Shown piece after piece: positions 17,681 through 62,573 of a stretch of 64,000 bases of DNA. The position numbers and the translations under genes are program-made. Location of the stretch: the NCBI GenBank assembly GCA_044344795.1, contig JBIJCF010000002.1, positions 15,562 through 79,561 on the forward strand, written 5' to 3'. The notes beneath the pieces were generated by a model. That model worked only from the letters and a program-made list of their open reading frames with translations, had not been told where the DNA came from and made no database searches. Position 1 is the first letter of the stretch. Each line of letters opens with the position of its first letter. This DNA is from Bacteroidia bacterium. Its GTDB lineage: Bacteria; Bacteroidota; Bacteroidia; Palsa-965.

Positions 17681-20600
17681 TGTGTCACGACAATAATGAG
17701 TTCTGCAGCATCAAATTCTGCGATAACACGAACTACATATGAACCGGGAATGGGATTCGGAATAGCCACAGGGCCGCTCCAGGTATCAGTTTCAGCCACA
17801 GGAATTCTAATACGTTCATTACCGGAAGCATCGTGCACTGTAATTACGAAATGTTGTTTGGCATGAAGGGAAACGCTCAGGTTAAATTGACCATTATTCG
17901 GATTGGGATATACAATCATCGTATCAATTCCCAAATTGTTCCAATAATCGGCATACGTGGAATCAATCGCGCCAAAGCAAACTGATTTAGTAAGTGTTAA
18001 TTCGCAAGTGCCATACCAGATGTGCATCGTGGCATTGAAGCAGCCGGTGTCTTGTGCAATAATGTAAGGTGCATTCGGTGTTCCTCCCACTATGGAAAAG
18101 GTATTCGGGAAGTCCCATGAAACCGAATCAGGACGCGGATTCGAGATGTCTACAAATACCAATGTGTCATTTAATTGTGCTTGTGTTGACACGATGAAGT
18201 TGGCTGCAGGAAGTAAACTGTTCGAATCAATGTCAGCTTGCAATGTATGAGTACAGCCTAACGAATCGCGCACGATAAATGAATACGATCCGAATGGCAA
18301 TCCTGAAAAGATACCGTTGTTCTGCCAGGTTAATCCGTTATCAATTGATATTTCGTATGGTGGAACACTTCCATACGGATAGACTTGTATCTCGCCGCCT
18401 GCACTGTTCGGGTCGCACGGTTGGAAAGATAATGTAGAATCACTAATCGGCGAAGCCGGTGTAACCAGCACAGAATCTGTTCCGATGCAACCTGCATTAT
18501 CCGTAACAACAGTTGTAAAGTATAAGGTGTCATTTGGATAAACAGTTACAGGACTTCCATTACCTCCGTTATTGTTCCATGTAATTTGAAACGGTGGTGT
18601 TCCGCCAATCGGTGCGGATTGCAGCACTGCACCGGACGCATGACAGATTACGGTGTCGTTGGATGTCGTCAATAAGAGTTGGGGTAAATAGGTGACGAAT
18701 ACGGAATCCGTTCGTGAACATCCGTTCAAGGAATCAGTAACCAGAACGTAATGCCATCCGGTATCTGCGGTTGTTATTTGAAAGCCGAAGTAGGTTCCTG
18801 ATGGTGTGGTCCAATTACAAGTTGCAGACTGCGTAAGCGAAGCAAATTGAAGCGTAACACTATCGCTACTGCAAGTGATTGTCGGATTGGATGTAATAGG
18901 ATTGAGATGCGGCGGTGTGAACCAAGGTTCAATAATGGCGAAGTTGGAATTGTTTACACATCCGTTAATCATATTCGTCACAATGAGCTGGTATGCACCT
19001 ACAGTGTTTACGTTAGCAGGATTTCCCAAATTAGTTTGTGCGGTGTCTTGCCAGAATAGCGTTGTTCCTGTTGTTGCGGAAGAGCCGGTTAATAATGTAT
19101 TCGGCTGTGCGCAGGTAAGCGTGTCGTTACTTACAGTGAAAGTCGCAGATGGAAGTACACGATTTTCATCAACGAATAGTGTATCGAATGCCGAGCATCC
19201 GTTTCTGCGAGAGGTTATTTGCAATAAATAATTATCACTAATAACAGCATATACAGGATTGGTGAACGACGACAATGAAGGACTCGTCCATGAGATAGAG
19301 TCATTCGGATATAGTCCTGACGCATCAAGTACCACTGTATCTACAATACACGTTAAATCAGGAATGGAGGTCCAAGTCTGAATTACGGGAGGTATCGTAT
19401 CTGCTATAATTGCGGCGCTGTCTGTATTCTTACAACCATTGGGCGCTGTTACCAGCAGTATGTACGTTCCCGTAATGCCTGATGTTATCGTATCTGCGCC
19501 GGAACTTGCAGGTCCTGACCAACTGTACGTTACACCCGGCGTTAAACTACTTCCGCGCAAGGTTGCCGTTGGCTGGTTGCACGTTGTAGAATCTGATACG
19601 CCCGCATCTGCATCCGGTTTGGGTAATACGGTTATAGTGTAGGATCGAGCAGATAAAGACACAATACCGCATCCGGAAACTCCACGTACTTGCACAGCAA
19701 ATGTTCCCGTTGTAGAATTAGGAACTGCAATTTCAACTGACGGTCCATTCGGTATTAACGTAGCTGCATTGCTTGGAATACAAATCCAGTTGTAAGAGTA
19801 ATAAGAAGCAGAAGGTGCGATTTGCAGAAATCCGGTATCTCCCTGACAGATCGTGTTTGTGGGGAAAATAAAATTATTCGGCTGTTGTTGAGGACGCAGG
19901 CAATAACTGAACAAACGAACAGATGTGCTGGAAGTATTAATGTTGCCATGTTGTGTAAAGCGTTCGGCCTCGAACAAATATCCGTTCATTACCATCAAAC
20001 CATTGTTGATATACGAGTTCATCGCGGTTTGATTGCTGTTGTATATTTTAATCGTTTGTAAAGCTGCGCCACGAAAAAAACATTTATATAATCGATGACC
20101 CGGATTTAATCTGGAATTGCCATCAAACGTAGCCAATAACAAAGTGTCCCGATGCAACTCAATTTCCACTCGAATATTGGGCATCTCGAATGGAACGTTC
20201 AACGAAAAAGCAACATGACGTTTATAATAGTTGATCGTATTCACAACGACAAAATTCTCCGCTGTTTGCTGATTGGTGGACATGTAAAAGGAACCGACAA
20301 CATACGCAGTGTCACCACGTACTACAAAGTCTGTGAAATAATGATCCGGCAACGGATCGGTTTGTATGATGATTTGTGAACTTCCACTTGTTGTGTTGAT
20401 TTTGTAGATGCGTGATTGAGGTAGCGTAGTGGACGCAGTTCGCGCGAAAATTTGATTCGTGCCGGGAAGTAGTTGCCGAATCACTCCGTTAACTGCGGAC
20501 GTTAATGTGGTTACAGATCCTGCAAATGTTAGTTGCGCGAGATTACTTCGTGCCGTAGATTGAATAGTTGTAAATCGTCCTCCTGCATACAAGAAGTTGT

Positions 20601-21069
20601 TATGAATGAGCAGGGAGAATATCGTGTCGTTAGCGGAGCCTGTTCCGGTACTCAGCATATTGATCAGATTGCCTGTGGAAGCACGCACTGCTGCAATATT
20701 CCTTCTATTCACTCCGTTAATTTGATCAAAACGTCCTCCGATATAAATGGTGTCGCCGTATCGTGCCACCGCATGTACTTCACCTCCGGCATTTACTGCA
20801 ACAGTCCAAGGCAATAGAGCTCCTGTATTTGCAGTAATTGCTGCCAGTCCTTCGCGCATTTGTGATCCTGCAGCACTAAATTTTCCGCCAACGTAAATAG
20901 TATTATGCGTAGAGTCGCCGTACAGCGCTCGCAGGTTGGTCGTATTTACATTTTGTGCAGGGCAAATTCCGCTATTGCATTCCAACAAAGGAAACACAAC
21001 GCCTGACGGAGTTTGTCCGTAGCTAAAACTGCTAATAACCAGCAATAGTGCAAGAATGAATGTCCGCAT
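17677..21069 (-). CDS. Large secreted protein with an N-terminal beta-propeller-like repeat region and a T9SS type-A C-terminal domain
   Basis: Signal peptide MRTFILALLLVISSFSYGQ. Repeats of the form YVGGKF.../IYIGGRF.../LYAGGRF. The C-terminus VYPNPNNGQFNLSVS...GSYVVRVIAEF is a T9SS CTD. 1130 aa. Confidence 0.75.
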   Translation of the reverse strand: MRTFILALLLVISSFSYGQTPSGVVFPLLECNSGICPAQNVNTTNLRALYGDSTHNTIYVGGKFSAAGSQMREGLAAITANTGALLPWTVAVNAGGEVHAVARYGDTIYIGGRFDQINGVNRRNIAAVRASTGNLINMLSTGTGSANDTIFSLLIHNNFLYAGGRFTTIQSTARSNLAQLTFAGSVTTLTSAVNGVIRQLLPGTNQIFARTASTTLPQSRIYKINTTSGSSQIIIQTDPLPDHYFTDFVVRGDTAYVVGSFYMSTNQQTAENFVVVNTINYYKRHVAFSLNVPFEMPNIRVEIELHRDTLLLATFDGNSRLNPGHRLYKCFFRGAALQTIKIYNSNQTAMNSYINNGLMVMNGYLFEAERFTQHGNINTSSTSVRLFSYCLRPQQQPNNFIFPTNTICQGDTGFLQIAPSASYYSYNWICIPSNAATLIPNGPSVEIAVPNSTTGTFAVQVRGVSGCGIVSLSARSYTITVLPKPDADAGVSDSTTCNQPTATLRGSSLTPGVTYSWSGPASSGADTITSGITGTYILLVTAPNGCKNTDSAAIIADTIPPVIQTWTSIPDLTCIVDTVVLDASGLYPNDSISWTSPSLSSFTNPVYAVISDNYLLQITSRRNGCSAFDTLFVDENRVLPSATFTVSNDTLTCAQPNTLLTGSSATTGTTLFWQDTAQTNLGNPANVNTVGAYQLIVTNMINGCVNNSNFAIIEPWFTPPHLNPITSNPTITCSSDSVTLQFASLTQSATCNWTTPSGTYFGFQITTADTGWHYVLVTDSLNGCSRTDSVFVTYLPQLLLTTSNDTVICHASGAVLQSAPIGGTPPFQITWNNNGGNGSPVTVYPNDTLYFTTVVTDNAGCIGTDSVLVTPASPISDSTLSFQPCDPNSAGGEIQVYPYGSVPPYEISIDNGLTWQNNGIFSGLPFGSYSFIVRDSLGCTHTLQADIDSNSLLPAANFIVSTQAQLNDTLVFVDISNPRPDSVSWDFPNTFSIVGGTPNAPYIIAQDTGCFNATMHIWYGTCELTLTKSVCFGAIDSTYADYWNNLGIDTMIVYPNPNNGQFNLSVSLHAKQHFVITVHDASGNERIRIPVAETDTWSGPVAIPNPIPGSYVVRVIAEFDAAELIIVVTQ

Positions 21070-38070: not shown

Positions 38071-38076
38071 GTATCG

Positions 38077-38151
38077 TGGGAGCAACAGGATTCGAACCTG
38101 TGACCCTCTGCTTGTAAGGCAGATGCTCTGAACCAGCTGAGCTATGCTCCC
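38077..38151 (-). tRNA. tRNA-Val (anticodon TAC)
   Basis: A 75-nt cloverleaf folded by hand. Acceptor stem gggagca/tgctccc, D-arm gctc..gagc, anticodon stem tctgc/gcaga with loop cTTACaa, and T-arm acagg-ttcgaat-cctgt. No encoded CCA. Confidence 0.85.
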
Positions 38152-49230: not shown

Positions 49231-50760
49231 TTATCGACCGCCGAGACCTTGAGGCGAACCTACACGATCCATAGCACAACGGAATCCAATAAATGCGGTT
49301 GCTTGTTGTTGATCCAGGAATCGTCGTGTTCCGGGAACCATCCAATATGCCCTGTCTTTCCACGAACCACCTTTATACACACGGGCCTTATCATTCACTA
49401 ATGAAGTGATACCGTATTCGTACATCAGTTTGTTCGCGCTAACTGCACTTGGGTCGCCATAGTATACAGAAGACAATCCGTCACCGTCACGGTAGTTGAT
49501 GTTGTCTGCGTACTTATAGTTACGACGCTTGTCCAACTTATCTTCTTTGTAAGAAAGATCTACATTACGATAGCGAATAGCTCCGGGGATACTTACGATG
49601 TTAGAATCTTTATCGTAACGAACAGAGTCTTCAACATAAATCAAAGTTGGATCTGTTGGATCTTTCATTTGAGTTCCGAAAACATTACCACGGAAAGGAC
49701 GGAAATCGTCATCATCAGTTAATGAAAGCGGACGATATACATCCATTACCCATTCTGATACGTTACCTGCCATGTTATACAAACCGTAATCGTTAGGCCA
49801 GTATGAATAAACAGGAGCCGTGATATCCGCAGCGTCATTCAACAAACCTGCAGTACCCATGTTATCACCGTTTGAACGCTTGTAGTTCGCCAACATCTGA
49901 CCAATATAACGCTCGTCAGGGTTACGAACAGCATGACCGTTCCAAGGATACAAACGGCGATCTGTAATACGTTCACCGATTGTGTTTCCGATCAATCCGA
50001 ATGCTGCGTATTCCCATTCAGCTTCGGTTGGGAGACGATACTTCGGAAGTAGGATTCCATCTTCCATACGAACCATACGCTCTTCAGCGCCGGTTGGGTT
50101 CAAGTTTGGTACGTTTTGTACAACGTTACCAACGTATGGGTTATTCGCTTTAACACCCGCCAAGTAGTGGTCGGTACTAAATGCATTTTCGTTTACCAGA
50201 TCAGGAGCCCAATCCAGAACTCCTTCACGAATCAAGATAAACTCGTTTACGCGGTCACTTCTCCAGCTCGCGAAGTTAGACGCCTGCAGCCAATTGATAC
50301 CAACTACCGGATAATCGCGGTAAGAAGGGTGACGCAAATAATACAATACGTAAGGCTCATTGTACGCCAATTTTTCGCGCCATACCAAAGTGTCAGGCAG
50401 AGCTTGCGTAAAAATTTCCGGATAATCCGGCCCGTACACACGGCTGGTCCAATACAAGAATTCTAAATAATCCAGGTTCCGTACTTCTGTTTCGTCCATA
50501 TAGAATGAAGAAACAGTAACACGACGAGGCACGTTGTTCCAGTCGTAATTTACGTCCTGTTCCACACGTCCCATGGTGAATGTACCGCCTTCCACAAGAA
50601 CAAGTCCCGGTCCTGTTTCTTGTCCTTCGTATGGCATTACTTCGAAACCGCCGTTATTAGGATCGTTGTAATTCCAGCCCGTCACATTCGAACGCTCTTT
50701 TTGACAGGACACCATCAAGGTGAGGCCTGCGAGCATTAATGGCAAGGTTAGTTTATTCAT
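49231..50760 (-). CDS. gldJ: Gliding-motility lipoprotein GldJ (formylglycine-generating-enzyme/SUMF1-like fold)
   Basis: Lipoprotein signal MNKLTLPLMLAGLTLMVSC and an FGE-sulfatase-like domain. Sits next to murF, matching the gldJ-porU-porV neighbourhood of Flavobacterium johnsoniae. Confidence 0.7.
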   Translation of the reverse strand: MNKLTLPLMLAGLTLMVSCQKERSNVTGWNYNDPNNGGFEVMPYEGQETGPGLVLVEGGTFTMGRVEQDVNYDWNNVPRRVTVSSFYMDETEVRNLDYLEFLYWTSRVYGPDYPEIFTQALPDTLVWREKLAYNEPYVLYYLRHPSYRDYPVVGINWLQASNFASWRSDRVNEFILIREGVLDWAPDLVNENAFSTDHYLAGVKANNPYVGNVVQNVPNLNPTGAEERMVRMEDGILLPKYRLPTEAEWEYAAFGLIGNTIGERITDRRLYPWNGHAVRNPDERYIGQMLANYKRSNGDNMGTAGLLNDAADITAPVYSYWPNDYGLYNMAGNVSEWVMDVYRPLSLTDDDDFRPFRGNVFGTQMKDPTDPTLIYVEDSVRYDKDSNIVSIPGAIRYRNVDLSYKEDKLDKRRNYKYADNINYRDGDGLSSVYYGDPSAVSANKLMYEYGITSLVNDKARVYKGGSWKDRAYWMVPGTRRFLDQQQATAFIGFRCAMDRVGSPQGLGGR

Positions 50761-50840: not shown

Positions 50841-51794
50841 TTAGAAAGACGGACAAGAAACAGTTCTAAACTTCTTTTTCTTCGGCTTACATTCAAACTG
50901 CATCTGGAAAGAAAGTTCGTGAGAACCCGCGGTAGCATTGGTTAATTTCGATACGGTAACATCGTAACTATATCCAAACTTGAACAAATCCTGCTGGAAT
51001 CCGAGCAACAGAATAAATGAATCCTGGTTACGATACCACATCCCACCAACCAACGGACCTTTGCTGAAGTAGATACCTAAATTGAGTTGCTGGAAATCTT
51101 GCTGCTTTTGAAATAATACGTTTGGTGAAATAGAAGTTTCACTGTAACGACCACCAATCGGAATAACTGCACCTGCGTGACCTGTATATTTCATTGGTAA
51201 TTTAGATGGTCCAAGAAATCCTTCATCCGGCTCAGTAATGTGATGCACAGCGGCACCAAAGAAATAACGACGGCTGTAACCCAACAAGCCTGCAGAGAAA
51301 TCTACGTTAGTTTTGCTGGTGGCATTTGGAACTTCGTTAGTGTTGTAAATAAATCCACGACGCGGGTCAATCATATCACCGAAATTCAATTTACTCCAAT
51401 CAACAGATTTTTGCGCGTAAGTAGCTTGTAAGCCTACTTTCATCGAGAATTCGCGTGTGATATTAAGCTGATAGGAATAAATACCACTGATATTGGTGGT
51501 GTTAATCGTAGCCATACCTGCGCGGTCGTTGGTAAACAAGAAGCCAACACCCCCGGAAATAGCGTCGATGTGCTGGTCGTAAGACGCACTGTAGGTAACG
51601 AACGTCCCCGTGATGCCGGGCCACTGGTTACGGTAGTTCAAGCAAATGCGCGGACAGCGGGCTGTCCCGGCAAATGCCGGATTCAAATACAATGGGTTTG
51701 CATAGAACTGAGTAAACTCAGGATCCTGTGCATAAAGATCGCCCAAGCCGGCACCGGCCAGCATTCCAAGGGCAACAATCACGCGTTTCAGCAT
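50841..51794 (-). CDS. Type IX secretion system membrane protein of the PorP/SprF family
   Basis: PorP/SprF hallmarks (QDPEFTQFYANPLYLNPAFAG, ...). 317 aa. Confidence 0.8.
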   Translation of the reverse strand: MLKRVIVALGMLAGAGLGDLYAQDPEFTQFYANPLYLNPAFAGTARCPRICLNYRNQWPGITGTFVTYSASYDQHIDAISGGVGFLFTNDRAGMATINTTNISGIYSYQLNITREFSMKVGLQATYAQKSVDWSKLNFGDMIDPRRGFIYNTNEVPNATSKTNVDFSAGLLGYSRRYFFGAAVHHITEPDEGFLGPSKLPMKYTGHAGAVIPIGGRYSETSISPNVLFQKQQDFQQLNLGIYFSKGPLVGGMWYRNQDSFILLLGFQQDLFKFGYSYDVTVSKLTNATAGSHELSFQMQFECKPKKKKFRTVSCPSF

Positions 51795-52045
51795 AAATGG
51801 GTGCTGTTAGGTGTAAGACACAATTATACGACATTATGACGAAACAGTTGCAAAAAGTTGCTTTTTTTCAACAGTCACGCAATAATTTATGTTTGCCATC
51901 GTTCTATTCCGGCACACTAAATTTAGTTAGTCGGAAAGAACATTTATACAAATATCTTAGTTTTCAATGAACTATGCAAACCTTTTCAGGTTTGATATAC
52001 TTACATAGGTTGTAAATGTTAACTTTAACGACAAGAGCGGTTATC

Positions 52046-55000
52046 ATGAAATTAAAGAAGTTGACACTATTGTTGGTGGGTATCGGCTTGATGTTTAATC
52101 AAGTGTCTGATGCTCAGCAAATTGTGCGTGAAAATAAAGGGCGTTTCCCGCGGCACGAACTCCGTTGGTCGGAGCTAACTGCAACTCAGTTTACAGAAAC
52201 GGAAGTGCGACACTTTTTGTCGTTTGACGGTGCGTTATACGACCCTGATAAAGAGTTTTTACCCTATTATTTTCATCGGGAGCAACTTCCTGCCGGCATG
52301 AATTCCGGTTCTGCGCAGTTGTTAAACCCATCATATGCGCCCGCAACGGCAGCAGAAATTCAGGTTATTAACAATTTCGGTCGGTCATTTCTTACTACAG
52401 ATGCAGAGGTGGTTACTCGAATTGATGTTGAACGTAAAGTTCCACACATTGCGGTGATGATTTATCCGTTGCGCATAAATACGGCTACCGGACAAATTGA
52501 AAAACTGGTTTCGTTCGATCTTCAGATTCAAGCAAGCTATTCCGCTGAGCGTAATTTACGCAGCCGTTCCTATGCCACAACTTCTGTGCTGGCTTCAGGA
52601 TCGTGGTTTAAAATCGGTGTTACGAATACCGGAATTCATCGCATCAACAAAACTTTAATGACCTCGCTCGGTGTCGATATCGATAATATTGATCCGCGCA
52701 ACATTCGTATTTACGGAAACGGACAAGGACAACTGCCATTTAGTAATAATGCACCTCACTACGATGATCTTCACGAATATGCAATCATGGTGCAAGGTGA
52801 ATCTGACGGTGTATTTGATGCGAATGATGCAGTTTTATTTTATGGTGTTTCACCCAATACATGGAAATACAATTCGATAGATTCAACATTCGCGCATCAG
52901 GTTCATAATTATTCAGATACTACTTATTACTTCTTAAATGTTGATTTAGGGCCTGGAAAAAGAATTGCAGCGCAAGCATCCAGTTCATTGCCGTCAACAC
53001 ATACCGTCAATACGTTCAATGACTATCAATATCACGAAAGCGATTCCAAGAATTTGATCAAGTCGGGACGTGAATGGTACGGCGAAGAGTTTAATATTAT
53101 CAATACCTATTCTTTCTCGTTTACCTTCCCGAATATCGTTTCCACATCACGCGTAAATGTTAAAGTGGATATGGTTTCAAGGTACGAGACTGTGCACAAT
53201 TATACCGTAACCGCGCAAAACACCAATCAGGTTATATCAGTTAATGGTGCGCAAACGCAGTGTTATTATTGTTGTTACGCGTTAGCAGGGAAAGCTGATT
53301 TTGATTTTCTGCCTTCAGGCCCTGTGGTGTCTGTAAATGTGGCGCGACAGTTGAATACGTCGCCTGCTCCACTGGGTTATTTGAACTGGATAGAGGTTAA
53401 CGTGCGTCGTCAGTTGAGAATGAGTGGTAATCAGATGAGCTTCCGCGATGTGGAATCAGTTGGTGTCGGGAATGTGGGGCAGTTTACCTTGTCCGGTGTT
53501 TCTCCAAATGTTGTAGTATGGGATGTAACGGATTTGGAAAATGTGTTTTTGCAGCAAGGGACTTTATCCGGGAACGATTTTTCTTGGACACAGCAGACGG
53601 ACTCTTTGCGCGAATACATTGCCTTTGACGGATCGTCGTATTTTACTCCTGTTGCTCATGGAGCAGTGAGTAATCAGAATTTGCATGCTATGGAGCCTGC
53701 AGAGTTCATTATCATTACTCATCCTTCATTTATGGTGCAGGCGCAGGAGTTGGCGTTACTGCACGAAGAACATGATAGTCTGACATATTTGATTGTTACA
53801 CCGCAGCAGATTTACAATGAATTTTCTGCAGGTGCGCAGGACGTTACTGCAATTCGCGATTTCATTCGCATGCTGTATGAGCGCGCAGACAGCCCCGATG
53901 AAATGCCTCGTTATGTTTTGTTATTTGGCGATGGATCGTATGATAACAAGCGTCGTCTTCCGAATAACACCAATATGATCCCAACATTCCAAAACAGAAA
54001 CTCATTATGTTTTACAGAGTCGTACGTGGCAGATGAGTTTTATTGTTTGCTGGATGATTCCGGAGAATGGGATACGGGCAGTGATATTGGCGCTATGGAT
54101 GTAAGCATTGGAAGATTCCCGGTAAGTTCTGTTTCAGAAGCGCAGAACATGGTGAACAAGGTACGTCAATACATTACAAAAACACCCCCGAACACTTCAC
54201 CTGCTGGATGTCTTGCGGATGGATGCAACAAAGGGGGAGAGTGGCAAAGCTGGATTACGTTTATCGGTGATGATGAGGATTCCAATATTCACATGAGTCA
54301 ATCCGATCAATTGGCGGCTATAGTGGACACCGCTTATCATGCATACAACATCGAGAAAATTTATTTGGATGCTTACCAGCAGGAACAAACCCCAGGCGGA
54401 GAACGTTATCCGCAGGTGAATGAAGCCTTTGATAAGCGCATGGAGAAAGGCTGTTTGATCCTGAATTACACAGGTCATGGAGGAGAAGTTGGATTAGCCC
54501 ATGAGCGCATTTTAGAAGTCGGGCAGATTAATGCGTGGGACAACAAGTGCAACATGCCATTGTTTGTAACTGCTACTTGCGAGTTTAGCCGATTTGATGA
54601 TCCGGGACGCGTATCTGCGGGTGAGTATGTGTTGTTGAATCCGAACGGTGGAGGAATTGGATTATTGACTACTGTACGATTGGTTTATTCAACTCCTAAT
54701 TTCATTTTGAATCGCAACTTTTATTTTGTTGTATTCGAGCCTGAAAACGGCGAGCAAGCGCACATTGGAGATATCTATCGCAAAACAAAAGTGTTGAGCG
54801 GTTATAGTACCAACAACAGAAACTTTACATTGCTGGGCGATCCAGCATTGAAGTTGAATTATCCGACGTATACTGTTGCCACAACGCATATTAATAACGT
54901 TCCTGTAAGCTCCAATGCAGATACGATTCGTGCCTTGAGCAGAGTAACGATTAAAGGCATGGTTACGGATTCGTTGGGTAATAAAATCAATAATTACAAT

Positions 55001-55948
55001 GGCGTTCTTTATCCTACGGTTTTTGATAAAGTAAGCACGGTTACTACTTTGCAGAATGATCCGCCGATATCAGCATTTACATTTAAAACACAACGTAATG
55101 TCATTTACAAAGGCAAGGTAAATGTTGTGAATGGTGACTTCGAATTTACGTTTGTTGTTCCGCGCGATATACAGTTTCAGTTCGGAGCAGGTCGTATTAG
55201 TTACTTCGCTGAAAACGGTGTTTCCGATGCATCCGGTGCTTATGAAAATATTGTAGTTGGTGGTTCTGATCCGAATGCGACTGCAGACGGAACAGGTCCT
55301 CAGGTGCGCTTGTTTTTGAACGATTCGAATTTCGTGGCCGGAGGAATGACCGATGCTTCTCCGAAATTATTTGCGATGATTTTTGACAGCAGTGGAGTAA
55401 ACACTGTTGGTAATGGTATTGGGCACGATATTCTTGCCGTGTTGGATGAAGAAACGGATAATGCTGTTGTGCTGAATGATTACTACCAGGCCAACTTGAA
55501 CAGTTATCAGAGTGGGACTATATTATATCCGTACAACAAATTGTCAGAAGGGCCGCATACATTATCGTTGAAAGTTTGGGATGTCTACAACAATTCATCC
55601 ACTGCTAAAACAGATTTTGTGGTGAGCAGTTCTGCAACATTGGCATTAGCGCATGTGTTGAATTATCCGAATCCGTTTACGACCAATACCGCGTTTTATT
55701 TCGAACATAATCAGGCATGTTCTGAGTTTAATGTCACCATTCAGGTGTTTACCGTAAGTGGCAAATTGGTAAAAACGATTAATGAGCCCGTACATACTAC
55801 AGGCTATCGTTCTCCGGGAATTACGTGGGACGGTCGTGATGATTATGGTGATCCGATTGGTCGCGGAACATACATCTATAAGGTGTTTGTGCGCAGTGCC
55901 GATGGACAAACTGCCGAACAGTACGAAAAGCTCGTGATACTTAATTAA
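52046..55948 (+). CDS. porU: T9SS C-terminal signal peptidase / sortase PorU (gingipain-like C25 peptidase fold)
   Basis: About 1300 aa. Signal peptide MKLKKLTLLLVGIGLMFNQVSDAQ, its own T9SS CTD at the C-terminus (VLNYPNPFTTNTAFYFEHN...YIYKVFVRS) and a PorU-PorV gene pair. Confidence 0.8.
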   Translation: MKLKKLTLLLVGIGLMFNQVSDAQQIVRENKGRFPRHELRWSELTATQFTETEVRHFLSFDGALYDPDKEFLPYYFHREQLPAGMNSGSAQLLNPSYAPATAAEIQVINNFGRSFLTTDAEVVTRIDVERKVPHIAVMIYPLRINTATGQIEKLVSFDLQIQASYSAERNLRSRSYATTSVLASGSWFKIGVTNTGIHRINKTLMTSLGVDIDNIDPRNIRIYGNGQGQLPFSNNAPHYDDLHEYAIMVQGESDGVFDANDAVLFYGVSPNTWKYNSIDSTFAHQVHNYSDTTYYFLNVDLGPGKRIAAQASSSLPSTHTVNTFNDYQYHESDSKNLIKSGREWYGEEFNIINTYSFSFTFPNIVSTSRVNVKVDMVSRYETVHNYTVTAQNTNQVISVNGAQTQCYYCCYALAGKADFDFLPSGPVVSVNVARQLNTSPAPLGYLNWIEVNVRRQLRMSGNQMSFRDVESVGVGNVGQFTLSGVSPNVVVWDVTDLENVFLQQGTLSGNDFSWTQQTDSLREYIAFDGSSYFTPVAHGAVSNQNLHAMEPAEFIIITHPSFMVQAQELALLHEEHDSLTYLIVTPQQIYNEFSAGAQDVTAIRDFIRMLYERADSPDEMPRYVLLFGDGSYDNKRRLPNNTNMIPTFQNRNSLCFTESYVADEFYCLLDDSGEWDTGSDIGAMDVSIGRFPVSSVSEAQNMVNKVRQYITKTPPNTSPAGCLADGCNKGGEWQSWITFIGDDEDSNIHMSQSDQLAAIVDTAYHAYNIEKIYLDAYQQEQTPGGERYPQVNEAFDKRMEKGCLILNYTGHGGEVGLAHERILEVGQINAWDNKCNMPLFVTATCEFSRFDDPGRVSAGEYVLLNPNGGGIGLLTTVRLVYSTPNFILNRNFYFVVFEPENGEQAHIGDIYRKTKVLSGYSTNNRNFTLLGDPALKLNYPTYTVATTHINNVPVSSNADTIRALSRVTIKGMVTDSLGNKINNYNGVLYPTVFDKVSTVTTLQNDPPISAFTFKTQRNVIYKGKVNVVNGDFEFTFVVPRDIQFQFGAGRISYFAENGVSDASGAYENIVVGGSDPNATADGTGPQVRLFLNDSNFVAGGMTDASPKLFAMIFDSSGVNTVGNGIGHDILAVLDEETDNAVVLNDYYQANLNSYQSGTILYPYNKLSEGPHTLSLKVWDVYNNSSTAKTDFVVSSSATLALAHVLNYPNPFTTNTAFYFEHNQACSEFNVTIQVFTVSGKLVKTINEPVHTTGYRSPGITWDGRDDYGDPIGRGTYIYKVFVRSADGQTAEQYEKLVILN

Positions 55949-55998
55949 TAGATTTCAGCATTTTAATACATTTGTTTCCTTTCAAAATCGCTCAGACA

Positions 55999-57234
55999 AT
56001 GAATACTAGAACCAATACATTACTCATCGGTAGTTTGTTAGCAGCAAGTGCAAGTTCTTTGACTGCACAAGTTAATTTGACTACGGATGAATTGTTGGGA
56101 CAAATCAACACCATTACAACTGCAGTTCCGTTTCTGATGATTTCTCCGGATTCCAGAAGTGGCGGAATGGGCGAAACCGGTGTTGCTACAACTCCAGATG
56201 TAAATTCTATACATTGGAATGCGGCGAAGTTGGCATTTGCATCGAAGAAAACCGGTTTTGGTATTTCGTACACGCCGTGGTTGCGCGCTTTAGTTCCGGA
56301 TATTAATCTAGCGTATGTTTCGTTTTATACACAGCCTAATAAAGAGTCTGCTTTCGGAATGTCCATGCGTTATTTTTCTTTAGGTAACATAACGTTTACG
56401 GACGTTGTTGGAAATACCATCGGACAGTTCCGCCCCAACGAATTTGCTTTGGATGGCGCGTATTCCCGTAAGTTGGGTCGTCGTTTCTCAGCAGGGATGT
56501 CTGCACGAATTGTACGTTCTAACTTGACCAACGGAATCACTGTTCAAGGTCAGGATACACGTCCTGGAACTGCATTCGCGGTGGATCTGAGCGGCTATTA
56601 TTTCAACGATGACATTAAGGTTAGCGGCAAGAAAGCGATTTTCATGAGCGGTATTGCTATCACAAACATCGGTAACAAAATTTCTTACAGCACTTCTATT
56701 AATCGCGATTTTATTCCGATCAATATGCGCTTGGGAAGTGGTTTACAAGTTAAAGCAGACGATTACAACAAAATCGGATTCCAGCTCGAGTTCAATAAGT
56801 TGTTGGTTCCAACACCTCCGGTTTATCTTCTGGATTCTGTTAACGGAGGTCCGGTTATTGGTCCTGATGGGAATTATGTAATTCTCGCCGGTCGCGATCC
56901 GGATCGTTCAGTTCCTGCAGGTATGATAGGATCTTTCTATGATGCGCCTTCCGGATTTAAAGAGGAATTGCGTGAGATCAATATCAACTTTGGAACAGAG
57001 TATTGGTACAACGATCAGTTTGCGGTGCGTGCAGGATATTTTTATGAGCACCCGACGAAAGGAAATCGTCAGTTCTTTACGTTGGGAGCAGGTATTAAGT
57101 ACAACGTATTCGGATTGGATTTTGCGTATTTGATCCCAACAAATGGTCAACGCAGTCCGTTGCAAAATACGCTGCGTTTCACCATGACTTTTGACTTCGA
57201 CGCATTCAAATCTCAAAATGAAGGCGATAAATAA
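55999..57234 (+). CDS. porV: T9SS outer-membrane shuttle protein PorV (LptO), FadL-like barrel
   Basis: Signal peptide plus ...PFLMISPDSRSGGMGETGVATTPDVNSIHWN, characteristic of PorV, immediately after porU. Confidence 0.8.
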   Translation: MNTRTNTLLIGSLLAASASSLTAQVNLTTDELLGQINTITTAVPFLMISPDSRSGGMGETGVATTPDVNSIHWNAAKLAFASKKTGFGISYTPWLRALVPDINLAYVSFYTQPNKESAFGMSMRYFSLGNITFTDVVGNTIGQFRPNEFALDGAYSRKLGRRFSAGMSARIVRSNLTNGITVQGQDTRPGTAFAVDLSGYYFNDDIKVSGKKAIFMSGIAITNIGNKISYSTSINRDFIPINMRLGSGLQVKADDYNKIGFQLEFNKLLVPTPPVYLLDSVNGGPVIGPDGNYVILAGRDPDRSVPAGMIGSFYDAPSGFKEELREININFGTEYWYNDQFAVRAGYFYEHPTKGNRQFFTLGAGIKYNVFGLDFAYLIPTNGQRSPLQNTLRFTMTFDFDAFKSQNEGDK

Positions 57235-57300: not shown

Positions 57301-57786
57301 ATGATACCCAATATTCGCGTAGGATTCGGTTTTGATGTCCACCAATTGAAGGAAGGACGTCCGATGATTCTTGGTGGTGTGCACATTGAGCATGATAAGG
57401 GATGCGATGGACATTCGGATGCGGATGTTTTATTACATGCGATTTGTGATGCGCTATTAGGTGCAGCAGGAATGCGCGACATTGGTTTTCATTTTCCCAA
57501 TACATCAGCGGAATTTAAAAATGCGGACAGTAAGAATTTATTGAAACATGTGGTGCAATTGATTCGCGAGAAGGGATGGCAAGTAATCAATGTGGACGCT
57601 ACTTTAACATTGGAAGCACCGAAAATAAATCCGCATATTGGAGCGATGATTAAAATAATTGCTCCAATCCTTGAAGTTGATGAAGATCGGGTGGCGATAA
57701 AAGCCACCACAAACGAGAAGATGGGTTATGTGGGAAGCGGCCAAGGTGCGAATGCTTACGCCGTTGCGTTGATCGGAAAACCTTAA
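57301..57786 (+). CDS. ispF: 2-C-methyl-D-erythritol 2,4-cyclodiphosphate synthase
   Basis: IRVGFGFDVHQL...HSDADVLLHAI. 161 aa from the internal start. Confidence 0.9.
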   Translation: MIPNIRVGFGFDVHQLKEGRPMILGGVHIEHDKGCDGHSDADVLLHAICDALLGAAGMRDIGFHFPNTSAEFKNADSKNLLKHVVQLIREKGWQVINVDATLTLEAPKINPHIGAMIKIIAPILEVDEDRVAIKATTNEKMGYVGSGQGANAYAVALIGKP

Positions 57787-58463
57787 TCGATATTGATGGT
57801 GTATTCTACACCAATGATATAAAGTGTCTCCGGATCACTGATATTCCATTCTTTCTGATAGAGACCATAAAACCCGATCTGGTGCATTTTATTGATTGAA
57901 TAATCTACTCCACCTATAAATCGTGTTCGGTCGAAGCCTTTGTGATAAGCCACACGTGGATCGTGAATAAGCCAGCGCATTTCAGTGCCGATGTATGGAG
58001 AGAAAAGCTCATTTAGTTTGAATGAACATTTGAATAAATTTCTCCAATACGATTCCGGGACATAACCAAATTGTGCTGCGTAACCATATCCTCGCCATTC
58101 ATATTGCAAACGACTGCGGTATGCAATGATGAACCGTCCCGGTTTTAATCGTGCGATAACATCTGCATACACGCGATGACGAATACCCCAAAAGCCATCT
58201 TCCTTGTGTTTGTTTATGATACGGTAGGTGCCTGCAACACGAAAGTTCTTGTTGAATTTATACGTTAATCCAACGTTGGTGTAGAATAGATTCACGGTTG
58301 TCAGATTATCTCGTACCCGGAATTCCTGATCAAAATTGAATACTAACTTGTCGCCAATATCCTTATTTACGCTAAATGTGGTCCACAAGCCGAGATCGCT
58401 GCGTTGTGCATACAGCGAGGATGTAACTGTCAATACTACTAACAACCGGCGTAAATGGAGCAT
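57783..58463 (-). CDS. DUF2490-like predicted outer-membrane beta-barrel protein
   Basis: Signal peptide MLHLRRLLVVLTVTSSLYAQ. Aromatic-rich amphipathic strands. 226 aa. Confidence 0.5.
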   Translation of the reverse strand: MLHLRRLLVVLTVTSSLYAQRSDLGLWTTFSVNKDIGDKLVFNFDQEFRVRDNLTTVNLFYTNVGLTYKFNKNFRVAGTYRIINKHKEDGFWGIRHRVYADVIARLKPGRFIIAYRSRLQYEWRGYGYAAQFGYVPESYWRNLFKCSFKLNELFSPYIGTEMRWLIHDPRVAYHKGFDRTRFIGGVDYSINKMHQIGFYGLYQKEWNISDPETLYIIGVEYTINID

Positions 58464-58467
58464 ACAA

Positions 58468-59241
58468 TTACTTTTGATAATAGTAAACTTTAATAATCGC
58501 CGAATCCTTCAGGTAGTCCACTTTACCAACACTTGCTTTGTGCACGTTCAGACCGGTACGCTTTCTCAGATCTTCCAACAATGCTTCGTATTGTTCGGGT
58601 TTTATAAGATCGATATTATCATATTGGATGGTTTGAACAAATTCGGTTTTCATTAAAATATTTCCATCCAAAAAGAATGCGGCGACCACGATAAATCCAT
58701 TGATTATAGCTAATTCCAAAATACTTCCACGAATTACGGAACTGATTAAGCCGAGCGCAATTACGGTAAACAAATACGTCATATCTCGCGCAGAAATGTC
58801 TTCTGTACGATAACGCAGAAGTGAAAAAACTGCAAAAAGTCCGAACGCGGCGCCCGTTGAGAAGCTGGACTTGGTATTAAGCAAGAACGATATAGCGAAA
58901 ATGGTAATATTAAACATGAAGAACGTGAAGAAGTAGTCGCGTCTTCTATATACGGGAAAATAGATTAAGCGAATGAGCACAAACATGGCAAACAAATTGA
59001 GGCCGAGCCGTGCAAAAAACGCCGCATTAAAGCGATCAAGAGCGGTAGTGAAAAACGAAACTTCCGGTTCTTCTTTGTCCTTGTCTTTCTTTTTCTTCTT
59101 CTTTTCTTCTTCAGTGTCTTGCTCCGTATGATTGACATTCTCACTTAAGGGATTGTCCGTTTGAGCATGAAGCGCAGGAGAAGGTGCGAGCGCAATGAAT
59201 AACCAAAATAGAATATGTAATGATCTAACTAGCATGGGCAA
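58468..59241 (-). CDS. DUF4956-like integral membrane protein
   Basis: K/E-rich segment followed by four TM helices and a C-terminal soluble domain. 257 aa. Confidence 0.5.
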   Translation of the reverse strand: MPMLVRSLHILFWLFIALAPSPALHAQTDNPLSENVNHTEQDTEEEKKKKKKDKDKEEPEVSFFTTALDRFNAAFFARLGLNLFAMFVLIRLIYFPVYRRRDYFFTFFMFNITIFAISFLLNTKSSFSTGAAFGLFAVFSLLRYRTEDISARDMTYLFTVIALGLISSVIRGSILELAIINGFIVVAAFFLDGNILMKTEFVQTIQYDNIDLIKPEQYEALLEDLRKRTGLNVHKASVGKVDYLKDSAIIKVYYYQK

Positions 59242-59983
59242 TTTTATCTACAGTTTTTAAATCTTGTTTGAAGTTATTTATTTTAATATCGGAGTGTAAT
59301 TTACTCATGGCCATCACAAATTTGCTCATGCCAAAAGGTTTAATACGCCGGTTCTGCAATGCTTTGCGAAACGGTGTTTGATTGCGACTATCGAGTTTGG
59401 CTTCAATGATTACCAGTCCGCAGAACTCATGTGCATCCTTCCCATCACGCACCACGAGATTAGTGTCAATGGTAAGACGTTCTTTGCCTGATTTATTCAC
59501 GAGCGTAATTCGGTCGTATTCAATGACCAGTGCGGGAGATAATTCATTCGGATGTAAGTGCGTTTCTTTTTCCAGAAAAGTGGTGGTGGCATCATTAAAA
59601 ATATCGTCACCGGATTTTATTTTAATTCGCTGTTTCAAAGTTCGTCCCTTGTTGCTCTTCTTCTTTATTTCAAAAAATGCAAGATTGGAGTCGACATATT
59701 TTCGAATACGAATTTTGAATCGTGGTACTTTGCCCTGATGATGTTGCTTGTACATCAAATGTTCGGGAGTGTCGAGGTAAGTGGTTTCGTAATGCGCAAC
59801 ACGATTGCCGTTGATGTCCAGAACTTGATAATCAGATAATACTTCTTCAAGAATGGGCAACAATTGATCTTCATGGATATTGTACTTCACGTCAATGCGA
59901 TCCAGCAGTTTTACGTTATCCATTTCAGATAAACTTACCGGTTCGAATTTTGCCAACACTTTTTGAAGAGCCGCTTTATCCAT
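59225..59983 (-). CDS. VTC-domain (CYTH-like triphosphate-tunnel, polyphosphate-polymerase-domain) protein
   Basis: MDKAALQKVLAKFEPVSL...RIDVKYNIHEDQLL...TTYLDTPEHLMYKQHHQGKVPRFKIRIRKY, the pattern of bacterial VTC-domain proteins. 252 aa. Confidence 0.55.
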   Translation of the reverse strand: MDKAALQKVLAKFEPVSLSEMDNVKLLDRIDVKYNIHEDQLLPILEEVLSDYQVLDINGNRVAHYETTYLDTPEHLMYKQHHQGKVPRFKIRIRKYVDSNLAFFEIKKKSNKGRTLKQRIKIKSGDDIFNDATTTFLEKETHLHPNELSPALVIEYDRITLVNKSGKERLTIDTNLVVRDGKDAHEFCGLVIIEAKLDSRNQTPFRKALQNRRIKPFGMSKFVMAMSKLHSDIKINNFKQDLKTVDKIAHAS

Positions 59984-59985
59984 AA

Positions 59986-60567
59986 TTAGGAGTAGGTGTA
60001 TTTAATCACTTTAAGCAACGTGTCGTTTGAACCGTAAATTTTCTTTTCGGTTTTTAATCCTTTGGCATTATACGTGTAAACCTCTTTGCGAATAATTTTG
60101 CCGGAAGCATCCATGGTTAGTTCCATCAACTTTTCGCCTTTACCATTATAGGTAAAGGTAGTACGTTGAATAATGTTCCCGGCTTGATCGTATTGGGTTT
60201 CTTCAGTTTTGTCACCGTTGCTATTGTGTTTCCAGGTGGTGCGGGAATATTTCGGGTCTTCGGAATTCTCCTTCGGCGATTTATTGTTTTCTACAATTTC
60301 TTCTGATTTTTCTTTTCCCGCGTATTTGGTGCGTACACGTTTACGAGTAGATCCGTCTTTGTTGTAATCTACTTCTTCGACGACATTACCATCTTTATCA
60401 AATGCCTTGTAAGACGATTTATAAGTTGCGGTTTCCTTGCCGTTTTCAAACAGGGTGGTGGTTTCAGTAGTAGATTTGATTTTATATTCTTTCGCTTGTT
60501 TACGCGACTGCGCCTCGACTTTCGTCGAGAACAACAGGATTATAATGAACAACAACGTTTGCTTCAT
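59986..60567 (-). CDS. Hypothetical secreted protein with short internal repeats
   Basis: Signal peptide MKQTLLFIIILLFSTKVEAQ and repeated ...YNKDG.../...YNGKGEK... units. 193 aa. Confidence 0.4.
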   Translation of the reverse strand: MKQTLLFIIILLFSTKVEAQSRKQAKEYKIKSTTETTTLFENGKETATYKSSYKAFDKDGNVVEEVDYNKDGSTRKRVRTKYAGKEKSEEIVENNKSPKENSEDPKYSRTTWKHNSNGDKTEETQYDQAGNIIQRTTFTYNGKGEKLMELTMDASGKIIRKEVYTYNAKGLKTEKKIYGSNDTLLKVIKYTYS

Positions 60568-61037: not shown

Positions 61038-62573
61038 CTAATGTGTTACGATAATTTTAAGTGCTTGCCGCTGAGAGGTAGTTATGAACTCGACGAAGTA
61101 TATACCATTAGGCCAAGTGCTGCACGACACTGAAGTAACTCCGCGAACATTTTCTTGTGAAGCGACCCATTGTCCTTGTATATTAAATACACGGTAACTG
61201 TATCGTTCAGTACCTGCCGGAGTGATGTTGAAATAATCGTTCGCAGGATTTGGGGCTTGGTTAAACGTCGTGATGTTTGATGAATTATCCGGAACAGACA
61301 ACCAGCAGCCAAAGGCGCTTAATTGATTCATTAACGCATTTCGACGTGCAGTGATAAACGATTTTAGTCCCGGCATTGTTATTCCTCCGTTGGGGCCGGG
61401 CAATGTGATAGCCATTGTGATGTTGTCTTCGAAGTTTTGGTTCGTATAAAACTTGTGTGTATCAGCATACACATAAGGTCGAATAACATTTGCAATACTA
61501 TCAATCATAGGATCCATGAAATCATTAGAGAAATCATTGCTCAGCATTACGCATAAAGCATTGATATAATCCTGATGATGCACGCTGTTGTTAAACATGT
61601 TATTCAATAAGGGTCTATTAGCCGGTTGATTGAGGTAGTTGTAGGGAATGGTTTGGATGGTGTTTGCATTCATGTTCATTTGAAAGTTTCCGAATGCTTC
61701 ATTCACATCCCAAACAATCCATCGGAAAATGTCGGCATCTTCATCGTGATAGATGTAATAATTATGACCACTGCCGGTGTACGAATCGAGGTTGGAGAAT
61801 ATGTTAGAGAATGCAGCTGCTTTAAGAACGCTCCAGGTATCAAATACTGTCGGTAAAGAATCCTGAAAATTGGCGGATGGTGTGTTGTTAATGACATCAA
61901 TTGTATGCACCAAGTCACTCCAGTCATTGGTTTGCGTACGGTCTAATTCATATTTGTTATAATATAATGAAGGAGATGAGCCAAGCCATCTTAAATCTCC
62001 CGAAGGATCACCTTTGAATAGATTGCCATCGTTATTGTTGAAACGTTGTGTAAGAAATTTTGCGTTCACTTCTTCCACTAAAGTGTACAATCCCCAATAT
62101 GAACTATTGATGTACACACGTGCATACGTGCATCGTGGTGCCAATATTCCCTGACGTCTGCAAAAATCCAGCGCTAATTTTTCACGCATGAACGTAGGAT
62201 CCTTGAAGCAGTTGTTCAGATTGATTTTCTTGATGCCATCATAGCTTAAAGTGGAATCAAATTCGTTGAAATCAATTTTAAACGATTTCTTGTCGGACGG
62301 ATTGTTGTAGGAAGAATTGCCTTTGAACTTTGCTCCTACATCGTCCATTACACGACCATTCAGTACCAACTGACATACCGTGTAGTAATCATTGGTATAG
62401 CCATCCTCCAAAGTATCCCAGTAAGAAGGTTGAGTAAAGTTCAGATGAATTTCGTGTACGGTTGATACGTTCCATAAACTGTCTCCATCCTGATGAGTTT
62501 GAGCGGTGATGTTGCTTCCGAAGAGAACCAACAAAGCGAGGGAAAAATGTTTCATAATGTCGAGACGTTGCAA
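61038..62573 (-). CDS. CotH-family (atypical kinase fold) protein with a T9SS C-terminal sorting domain
   Basis: CotH-like core (FKIDFNEFD...INLNNCFKDPTFMREKLALDFCRRQGILAPR...). C-terminus ...SYRVFNIQGQWVASQ...GIYFVEFITTSQRQALKIIVTH. Signal peptide present. Confidence 0.55.
   Translation of the reverse strand: MQRLDIMKHFSLALLVLFGSNITAQTHQDGDSLWNVSTVHEIHLNFTQPSYWDTLEDGYTNDYYTVCQLVLNGRVMDDVGAKFKGNSSYNNPSDKKSFKIDFNEFDSTLSYDGIKKINLNNCFKDPTFMREKLALDFCRRQGILAPRCTYARVYINSSYWGLYTLVEEVNAKFLTQRFNNNDGNLFKGDPSGDLRWLGSSPSLYYNKYELDRTQTNDWSDLVHTIDVINNTPSANFQDSLPTVFDTWSVLKAAAFSNIFSNLDSYTGSGHNYYIYHDEDADIFRWIVWDVNEAFGNFQMNMNANTIQTIPYNYLNQPANRPLLNNMFNNSVHHQDYINALCVMLSNDFSNDFMDPMIDSIANVIRPYVYADTHKFYTNQNFEDNITMAITLPGPNGGITMPGLKSFITARRNALMNQLSAFGCWLSVPDNSSNITTFNQAPNPANDYFNITPAGTERYSYRVFNIQGQWVASQENVRGVTSVSCSTWPNGIYFVEFITTSQRQALKIIVTH

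Follow-up and report, generated by a model that had tools for sequence, protein, structure and literature searches.

In recent reviews VTC is the 'eukaryote-type' and PPK the 'prokaryote-type' route to inorganic polyphosphate (polyP), and bacterial polyP is attributed to PPK1/PPK2. Bacterial genes with a VTC domain have been seen beside Gram-positive pel operons, in the arrangement cotH-'polyphosphate polymerase'-DUF4956(-DUF4832) (Whitfield et al., bioRxiv 10.1101/768473; S. intermedius preprint 10.1101/2024.04.20.589940). Here we analyzed a 64,000-nucleotide (nt) stretch of DNA from a Bacteroidia bacterium of the Palsa-965 lineage (assembly GCA_044344795.1, contig JBIJCF010000002.1, positions 15,562 to 79,561), hereafter the window, in which adjacent genes encode a VTC-domain protein, a DUF4956 inner-membrane protein and a DUF2490 outer-membrane barrel. 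An initial annotation had described these as an uncharacterised three-gene operon. The cotH-VTC-DUF4956 core had already been seen next to the pel operons, and the three genes are the 3' half of a translationally coupled six-gene envelope operon. In relatives of this operon, one slot is taken by either of two unrelated outer-membrane barrels, of which one comes from a phosphate-selective family. We assign a probability of roughly 0.5 to the reading that polyP is made in the cytoplasm, crosses the inner membrane by way of DUF4956 and the outer one through the barrel, and is functionally linked with a secreted CotH kinase. As the annotation had supposed, the triad has no experimentally assigned function; we found no functional study of it in the searchable literature.

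The locus resembles several described systems. It shares with the eukaryotic VTC complex the PF09359 fold and family with all catalytic and tunnel residues, and the pairing of a cytoplasmic-face enzyme with a membrane protein, which implies a logic of synthesis-coupled translocation (PMC9911596). It differs in that the bacterial enzyme is a single domain of 252 amino acids (aa) without an SPX sensor or fused DUF202-type transmembrane (TM) helices, that an Asp stands in beta-strand 1 where Vtc4 has Thr198, that DUF4956 has no detectable sequence or fold relation to the TM regions of Vtc1/Vtc4, and that an outer-membrane barrel, periplasmic proteins and a secreted kinase are added. The Gram-positive pel-adjacent genes have the same trio of secreted CotH-like kinase, VTC-domain protein and DUF4956, but they are monoderm, are attached to an exopolysaccharide operon, and come without the barrel, the lipoprotein, the basic repeat protein and the tail for the type IX secretion system (T9SS). 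OprP/OprO porins (PF07396) occupy the identical slot after DUF4956, with overlapping codons, in 42/64 metagenomic loci and likewise have a basic-rich lumen, yet they are 16-strand trimeric uptake porins, whereas DUF2490 is a small barrel of about 12 strands outside PF07396. The closest known fold to the modelled DUF2490 barrel is that of KdgM/NanC, which are 12-stranded porins for acidic oligosaccharides. PPK1/PPK2 would have the same product, polyP from a nucleoside triphosphate (NTP), but their fold and mechanism are unrelated and their products stay cytoplasmic. The synthase-dependent secretion of Pel, alginate, cellulose and poly-N-acetylglucosamine follows the same logic of cytoplasmic polymerization with inner-membrane passage, periplasmic handling and an outer-membrane barrel. 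This is analogy and not homology, since no component is homologous and the polymer here would be inorganic.

Results

Organization of the operon

The six genes of the operon lie on the minus strand in the order CotH(T9SS)-lip138-rep193-VTC-DUF4956-DUF2490:

61038-62573, minus strand: CotH gene, first of the operon; likely start ATG 62555; 505-511 aa
60573-60989, minus strand: lip138 gene, small lipoprotein; likely start ATG 60962 (MKRKF...SC)
59986-60567, minus strand: rep193 gene, exported basic repeat protein with a signal peptide; 193 aa
59225-59983, minus strand: VTC gene; Pfam VTC PF09359; 252 aa
58468-59241, minus strand: DUF4956 gene; PF16316; 257 aa from TTG or 255 aa from ATG at 59235
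57783-58463, minus strand: DUF2490 gene, last of the operon; PF10677; 226 aa

The open reading frames (ORFs) of the last three genes were found exactly where the initial annotation had placed them, and its family assignments were confirmed by profile search with scores far over the gathering thresholds. The VTC protein matched PF09359 with 113.8 bits (cut-off 23; E=1.2e-32) over model positions 2-235 of 235, the DUF4956 protein matched PF16316 with 173.9 bits (cut-off 30.6; E=3.1e-51) over positions 1-169 of 169, and the DUF2490 protein matched PF10677 with 91.5 bits (cut-off 29.8; E=7.1e-26). The co-orientation and tight spacing described there also stood, while the three-gene extent did not, as CotH, lip138 and rep193 belong to the same unit. 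The gaps are 2 nt between rep193 and VTC, 5 nt between lip138 and rep193 and 48 nt between CotH and lip138. VTC overlaps DUF4956 by 17 nt if the latter starts at TTG and by 11 nt if it starts at ATG; of the two, the ATG (59235) is the more likely, and this start overlaps the stop codon of VTC. Four nt separate DUF4956 from DUF2490. A scan for sigma-70 promoters and intrinsic terminators, which is uninformative for Bacteroidota promoters, gave no more hits than shuffled sequence and none between the operon genes. The VTC protein lacks an export signal, and all other proteins of the operon carry one.

Conservation across genomes and lineages

With a DUF4956 alignment we retrieved 80 genome loci, mostly from Bacteroidota, in which ORFs were labelled by iterated profiles. 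The closest were uncultured Flavobacteriales metagenome-assembled genomes (MAGs) with 94-95% identity. VTC was present in 78/80 of these loci and DUF2490 stood directly after DUF4956 in 73/80, which bears out the co-conservation that the initial annotation had expected in related genomes. Where the flank was long enough, lip138 (57/69) and rep193 (55/69) were found upstream, as was CotH on the same strand (in 41 of the 62 loci whose upstream flank reached 4 kb or more), and the order CotH-lip-rep-VTC-DUF4956-DUF2490 recurs across the set. Overlap of stop and start codons is the rule: the VTC stop lies at a median of -11 nt from the DUF4956 start, and the median distance from DUF4956 to the barrel is -1 to -4 nt. 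A metagenome scan with an alignment of distant DUF4956 proteins added 80 further loci, 64 of which had enough sequence beyond DUF4956 to show what follows it. Gene order and strand are kept in 160 independent loci from several phyla, and the system was found in Bacteroidota (including gut Bacteroides, BT3498-99), Proteobacteria, Deinococcota, Firmicutes and Actinobacteria.

Outside Bacteroidota the pair of VTC and DUF4956 has other companions:

Nitratireductor: DUF4956-VTC-PiT-phytase-like esterase
Aminobacter, Shinella: DUF4956-VTC-phytase-like esterase
Deinococcus QL22: acid phosphatase and phnDCE beside the pair
Deinococcus taeanensis: CotH-VTC-DUF4956, no barrel

The PiT, phytase-like esterase, acid phosphatase and phnDCE neighbors in these lineages place the pair in a phosphate context. 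Since cotH-VTC-DUF4956 occurs without a barrel in Deinococcus and in Gram-positive pel operons, the core of the system is VTC plus DUF4956; CotH is a frequent partner, diderms have the barrel as well, and rep193 and lip138 are extras specific to Bacteroidota.

Some loci depart from the common layout. In alphaproteobacterial chromids (L082, L085, L086, L087) the order is inverted, with DUF4956 followed by VTC (23-nt overlap) and then the phytase-like esterase; an extracytoplasmic-function sigma/anti-sigma pair and an S8 peptidase lie upstream, and there is no CotH. VTC is on the opposite strand, downstream of DUF2490, in six Bacteroidota loci (L033, L035, L037, L042, L052, L053), so the linkage survives rearrangement. 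Two loci from high-GC MAGs outside Bacteroidota (L039, 6235-12004, and L041) have VTC-DUF4956 without a barrel, flanked by ArgJ and by a saccharopine-dehydrogenase-like gene together with one for an Orn/DAP decarboxylase, a combination characteristic of the carboxyspermidine (polyamine) pathway. PolyP naturally has polyamines as counter-ions, although their genes may stand at these two loci by coincidence. In B. thetaiotaomicron the DUF4956 and DUF2490 orthologues are BT3498-BT3499, which showed a -7.6 fold change in an iron-limitation transcriptome that was not significant (p=0.175) (PMC10434189).

The VTC-domain enzyme

The window protein gave no CYTH match at E<=0.01 in the Pfam profile search. 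Single-sequence PDB searches with the VTC, DUF4956 and DUF2490 proteins returned nothing useful, and a VTC profile reached only Vtc2 in the PDB (E=0.013). The bacterial family was therefore aligned by hhalign to the yeast Vtc4 tunnel domain (residues 193-482, 8i6v_E from PDB), which gave 204 aligned columns (E=1.2e-3, probability 20%) and the following register:

K33: Vtc4 K200
R92, R94: Vtc4 R264, R266
K107: Vtc4 K281
Y156, R158: Vtc4 Y359, R361
R169: Vtc4 R373
E194: Vtc4 E426
S220, K221: Vtc4 S457, K458

All of these catalytic and tunnel positions except Y156 are invariant in 35 homologues and in 143 VTC ORFs, the latter drawn from two independent locus sets and several phyla; at the Y156 position Tyr is found in 127/143. 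They include the three positions of the R264A/R266A/E426N substitution set that inactivates yeast VTC (PMC9911596), of which E426 is the metal-ligand Glu, and K458, which is described as the catalytic lysine of Vtc4 and as of minor importance for hydrolases among the triphosphate tunnel metalloenzymes (TTM) (PMC4641920). In Vtc2, the inactive paralogue, K458 is replaced by Ile. The homology to the Vtc4 tunnel domain claimed in the initial annotation stood, with a full-length PF09359 match and all catalytic and tunnel residues kept. Beta-strand 1 of the bacterial proteins reads R-x-D-x-K, and its Asp is kept in 136/138 sequences.

There is no SPX domain, TM or hydrophobic segment or export signal in the window protein, and only 2/136 orthologues have a signal-like N-terminus. 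On these sequence features we predict a stand-alone cytoplasmic triphosphate-tunnel enzyme, a putative polyphosphate polymerase of the Vtc4 type. NCBI names such proteins 'polyphosphate polymerase domain-containing'.

The DUF4956 membrane partner

Conservation in the operon is highest for DUF4956, with about 60-70% identity across Bacteroidota and a near-invariant core in the alignment, STGAAFGLFAVFSLLRYRTEDISARDMTYLF. Even Proteobacteria and Deinococcus keep its FGLFA...R...TY.F skeleton without change. The family is large, as about 1,840 representatives at the 50%-identity level matched at E<=1e-3. Across phyla DUF4956 is the obligate, translationally coupled partner of VTC.

The initial annotation described a 4-TM protein. 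The AlphaFold2 model (predicted local distance difference test (pLDDT) 69) does not agree with this: it shows a signal-like helix ending in A|Q, a disordered, charged acidic/poly-Lys tract, five helices and a C-terminal beta-alpha-beta-beta domain with a weak resemblance to ACT domains. We take the A|Q end of the signal helix to reflect the 'Q-rule' of Bacteroidota signal peptidase. If the signal peptide is cleaved, as predicted, the strongly positive YRRRD loop that follows helix one suggests an N-out, C-in topology, which would place the ACT-like domain in the cytoplasm beside VTC. Neither sequence nor fold comparison found a significant fold relative of DUF4956, the eukaryotic VTC channel included.

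The acidic/poly-Lys low-complexity tract, EEEKKKKKKDKDKEE, spans residues ~26-64, between the predicted cleavage site and the first TM helix, and is probably periplasmic. It was found in 36/94 DUF2490-type loci, in a Bacteroidota sublineage, and in 0/43 loci with a Porin_O_P barrel; outside Bacteroidota both the signal peptide and the poly-Lys extension are absent. Among public gene calls there are also single-ORF fusions of DUF4956 (P0318, P0374, P0379, P0344), with DUF2490 in three cluster representatives and with CotH in one. These may be genuine, the signal peptide of the partner then serving as an extra TM segment, or artefacts of frameshift or read-through, as the genes normally overlap by 1-4 nt. 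The predicted fusion proteins were not used as evidence.

The outer-membrane barrel and its replacement

As the initial annotation had it, the DUF2490 protein has a signal peptide and a beta-barrel: the model (pLDDT 90) consists of a signal helix followed by an all-beta barrel of 11-12 strands. With lumen-facing residues inferred from strand alternation, 15/17 arginines of the mature protein fall on the polar, lumen-facing side, 11 of these are at least 90% conserved, and the lumen face has a net charge of +4 to +8 in all 37 aligned sequences. The modelled fold is closest to the KdgM/NanC polyanion porins, while by sequence DUF2490 falls outside the KdgM/NanC family. A Pfam profile search gave no PF07396 match to the window barrel. 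TCDB lists the DUF2490 family as a putative porin (1.B.81) with no established function (PMC4827864).

A PF07396 phosphate-selective porin is encoded instead, 2 nt downstream of DUF4956, on a Pseudoalteromonas chromid. Directly downstream of DUF4956 in the 64 metagenomic loci we found Porin_O_P in 42, DUF2490 in 16 and neither in 6, and Pfam confirmed the PF07396 identity in 10/10 diverse examples checked (E=6e-15 to 4e-66). One such porin is homologous to P. aeruginosa OprP (E=3.5e-35) and OprO (E=2.9e-30), which are characterized phosphate- and pyrophosphate-specific channels that serve in uptake and are induced by phosphate starvation. An OprP/OprO-type porin in the DUF2490 slot is independent evidence for passage of a phosphate species across the outer membrane. 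In the loci with this porin, DUF4956 is typically preceded by VTC and followed by the porin, with CotH or a lamin-tail-domain protein in first place. The lamin-tail-domain protein is small and stands in for CotH in loci of the Pseudoalteromonas type, and in a Pseudoalteromonas plasmid record VTC is reduced to a 104-aa C-terminal remnant.

CotH, lip138 and rep193

The first protein of the operon matched CotH (PF08757, E=1.9e-66) and has an N-terminal signal peptide and a C-terminal sorting domain (Por_Secre_tail PF18962, E=1.5e-11; TIGR04183, E=6.6e-11), features that identify it from its sequence as a T9SS cargo with a type A C-terminal sorting domain. It aligned to B. cereus CotH 5jd9 (E=1.7e-20). 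In ungapped orthologues the active-site Asp in 'NLDSY' is kept in 56/57 and the Asp in 'WDVN' in 54/57. By alignment offset these would correspond to D228 and D251 of B. subtilis CotH, both required for kinase activity, and the window CotH looks catalytically competent. Some orthologues carry CHU_C or Por_Secre_tail instead, and the Cytophagales CotH proteins examined had no detectable tail. Many loci encode two or three tandem CotH paralogues, some of them large and multidomain, with Lamin-tail, CHB_HEX_C, Fn3-associated, CHU_C or Por_Secre_tail domains; loci noted for such variation at the CotH position are L046 (4718-8056), L059 (2244-5099) and L081 (6303-6797).

lip138 has an immunoglobulin (Ig)/prealbumin-like beta-sandwich domain with a weak CarboxypepD_reg match (E=8e-6), and its lipobox Cys is invariant in 63 sequences. 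rep193 is a lysine-rich protein of YD/MORN-like beta-hairpin repeats whose signal peptide has an A|Q end. Its basic residues (30 K and 7 R) outnumber the 28 D/E, its Q20 is invariant, and its net charge is positive in 82% of 49 orthologues (median +6). PDB profile searches with the two proteins found no informative relative. lip138 was seen only in DUF2490-type loci (70/94), and neither it nor rep193 occurs in Porin_O_P-type loci (0/47).

Neighboring genes

The operon lies near genes of the T9SS and gliding machinery:

49231-50760, minus strand: GldJ-like protein of the FGE-sulfatase family
50841-51794, minus strand: PorP/SprF
52016-55948, plus strand: PorU, C25 peptidase
55972-57234, plus strand: PorV
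ending at 57786, plus strand: ispF, convergent with DUF2490, between the operon and PorU/PorV

The initial annotation placed the operon directly beside porU/porV. The genes are indeed nearby, but the convergent ispF intervenes, and a conserved functional link did not emerge. PorV was present in 22/59 loci with enough flank, in nearer relatives only, and PorU/PorV adjacency was rejected as a general functional linkage on this count. The T9SS/gliding synteny, together with ispF and cdd, likewise recurs in nearer relatives only. From this distribution of PorV we conclude that the T9SS neighborhood is lineage synteny; the actual T9SS connection of the operon is the sorting tail on CotH. The stop codons of ispF (57786, plus strand) and DUF2490 (57783, minus strand) overlap, which leaves no space for an intergenic terminator. 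Elsewhere in the window, an 1130-aa protein (17677-21069, minus strand) with an Ig_7 (CHU_C-associated) domain is a probable additional T9SS cargo, and a tRNA-Val(TAC) at 38076-38151 (minus strand) was the sole Rfam or ARAGORN match.

Discussion

In the pathway that we favor, the cytoplasmic VTC protein would polymerize polyP from the gamma-phosphate of ATP or another NTP, docked to DUF4956 through the cytoplasmic ACT-like domain. DUF4956 would conduct the nascent chain across the inner membrane, as a functional analogue and not a homologue of the Vtc1/Vtc4 channel; rep193 and lip138 may handle the polymer in the periplasm; and the arginine-lined DUF2490 barrel would provide outer-membrane passage for the polymer or for short phosphate species derived from it. 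The T9SS-secreted CotH would belong to the same pathway and act on the cell surface. In this view bacteria would have rebuilt the VTC-type coupling of synthesis to membrane passage from unrelated membrane parts. Synthesis-coupled export across both membranes was already proposed in the initial annotation. That proposal is strengthened by the kept catalytic residues, the co-conservation and translational coupling, the arginine-lined lumen and the OprP/OprO-type replacement of the barrel, while direction and product are still matters of inference.

A more tentative extension concerns CotH. Exported polyP could be its phosphoryl donor, or the polymer that CotH attaches to surface proteins or polysaccharides, which would amount to an ATP-independent extracellular phosphorylation. 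We think this unlikely as it stands. If true, it would solve how a kinase works outside the bacterium, where there is no ATP, and would explain why CotH, VTC and DUF4956 travel together in monoderms and diderms, with a pore in diderms only.

Several points weigh against the favored pathway. The hhalign link to Vtc4 is weak by itself (E=1.2e-3, probability 20%), and the Asp of beta-strand 1 is a partial remnant of the ExExK acidic patch of hydrolytic TTMs. The DUF4956 model is of moderate confidence (pLDDT 69) and is a monomer in which no pore is visible, with no fold relative. The poly-Lys tract was rejected as a universal polyP-binding element, given its occurrence in 36/94 DUF2490-type and 0/43 Porin_O_P-type loci. 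Porins are bidirectional and OprP/OprO serve in uptake, so the porin evidence gives no direction. A 2026 preprint reported a buried, salt-bridged two-cation/two-anion/Tyr network in 238 DUF2490 models, so the lumen may be partly occluded and not an open channel. The authors of the S. intermedius study suggested that polyP stays cytoplasmic (10.1101/2024.04.20.589940). The searchable literature held no functional or biochemical study of bacterial VTC, DUF4956, DUF2490 or BT3497-99; nor did it hold a description of the six-gene Bacteroidota module or of the alternation of DUF2490 with Porin_O_P.

Among the alternatives phosphate scavenging survives best. Exogenous pyrophosphate or polyP would enter through the barrel and be carried inward by DUF4956, and the TTM domain of VTC would hydrolyze or use it. 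This fits the characterized Porin_O_P members, which are uptake channels induced by phosphate starvation, the position of the pair among phosphate-acquisition genes elsewhere (PiT, phytase-like esterase, acid phosphatase, phnDCE), the many TTM enzymes that are tripolyphosphatases or polyphosphatases (PMC4641920), and the conserved Asp at the position of Vtc4 T198. However, it was the VTC model that matched, with no CYTH match at E<=0.01, and the K458 equivalent and the basic tunnel residues are kept in 143/143 sequences. Because mutation of the K458-equivalent lysine of AtTTM3 barely affects hydrolysis (PMC4641920), such strict conservation argues for polymerase chemistry. Moreover, the operon has no binding protein or energizing ATPase, and the link to secreted CotH and to monoderm Pel exopolysaccharide operons fits an outward function better. 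We consider inward scavenging unlikely, if worth keeping in view.

We are more doubtful of a periplasmic polyP depot, comparable to the yeast vacuole or the acidocalcisome, in which polyP would be bound to rep193, the barrel would exchange orthophosphate, pyrophosphate and counter-ions, and CotH would be uncoupled from the process. The periplasm is topologically equivalent to the vacuole lumen that receives polyP from VTC, and rep193 is exported and basic. A 12-strand barrel or a narrow OprP-type pore may also be too tight for long chains, and the buried charge network reported in DUF2490 points the same way. Against this, monoderms keep cotH-VTC-DUF4956 while they have no periplasmic compartment, CotH is co-conserved and co-oriented in many lineages, and the supposed binding protein rep193 is missing, with lip138, from Porin_O_P-type loci (0/47).

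It is quite improbable, in our estimate, that the operon supports cytoplasmic polyP synthesis only, with DUF4956 as an anchor or an ACT-like ligand-sensing regulator that translocates nothing, and with the barrel and the secreted proteins serving a separate, co-regulated function. Cytoplasmic retention is what the S. intermedius authors suggested; a regulatory role is the usual one for ACT-like domains, to which the resemblance is weak here, and the DUF4956 monomer model shows no pore. It does not account for an outer-membrane barrel that follows DUF4956 with overlapping stop and start codons in 58/64 metagenomic and 73/80 genome loci, for the phosphate selectivity of one of the two barrel types, or for the fact that five of the six proteins are exported or membrane-embedded. 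That the genes are chance neighbors or mis-called ORFs with no functional unit, for which only the general caution speaks that an ORF is not necessarily a gene, is effectively refuted by the strong Pfam scores, the order and strand kept in 160 loci and the invariant residues.

If export of polyP by this operon is true, it would be a second, PPK-independent bacterial polyP route, and the first dedicated to placing polyP outside the cytoplasm. Cultured carriers include Bacteroides, Runella, Dyadobacter, Flectobacillus and Pseudoalteromonas, and among them Bacteroides (BT3498-BT3499) is genetically tractable. Such a route would bear on how phosphorus cycles in aquatic and gut communities and on their extracellular polyP, on biofilm matrix chemistry through the link to Pel, on virulence loci, as C. 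perfringens NELoc-2 carries the same genes, and on the unexplained role of secreted CotH kinases.

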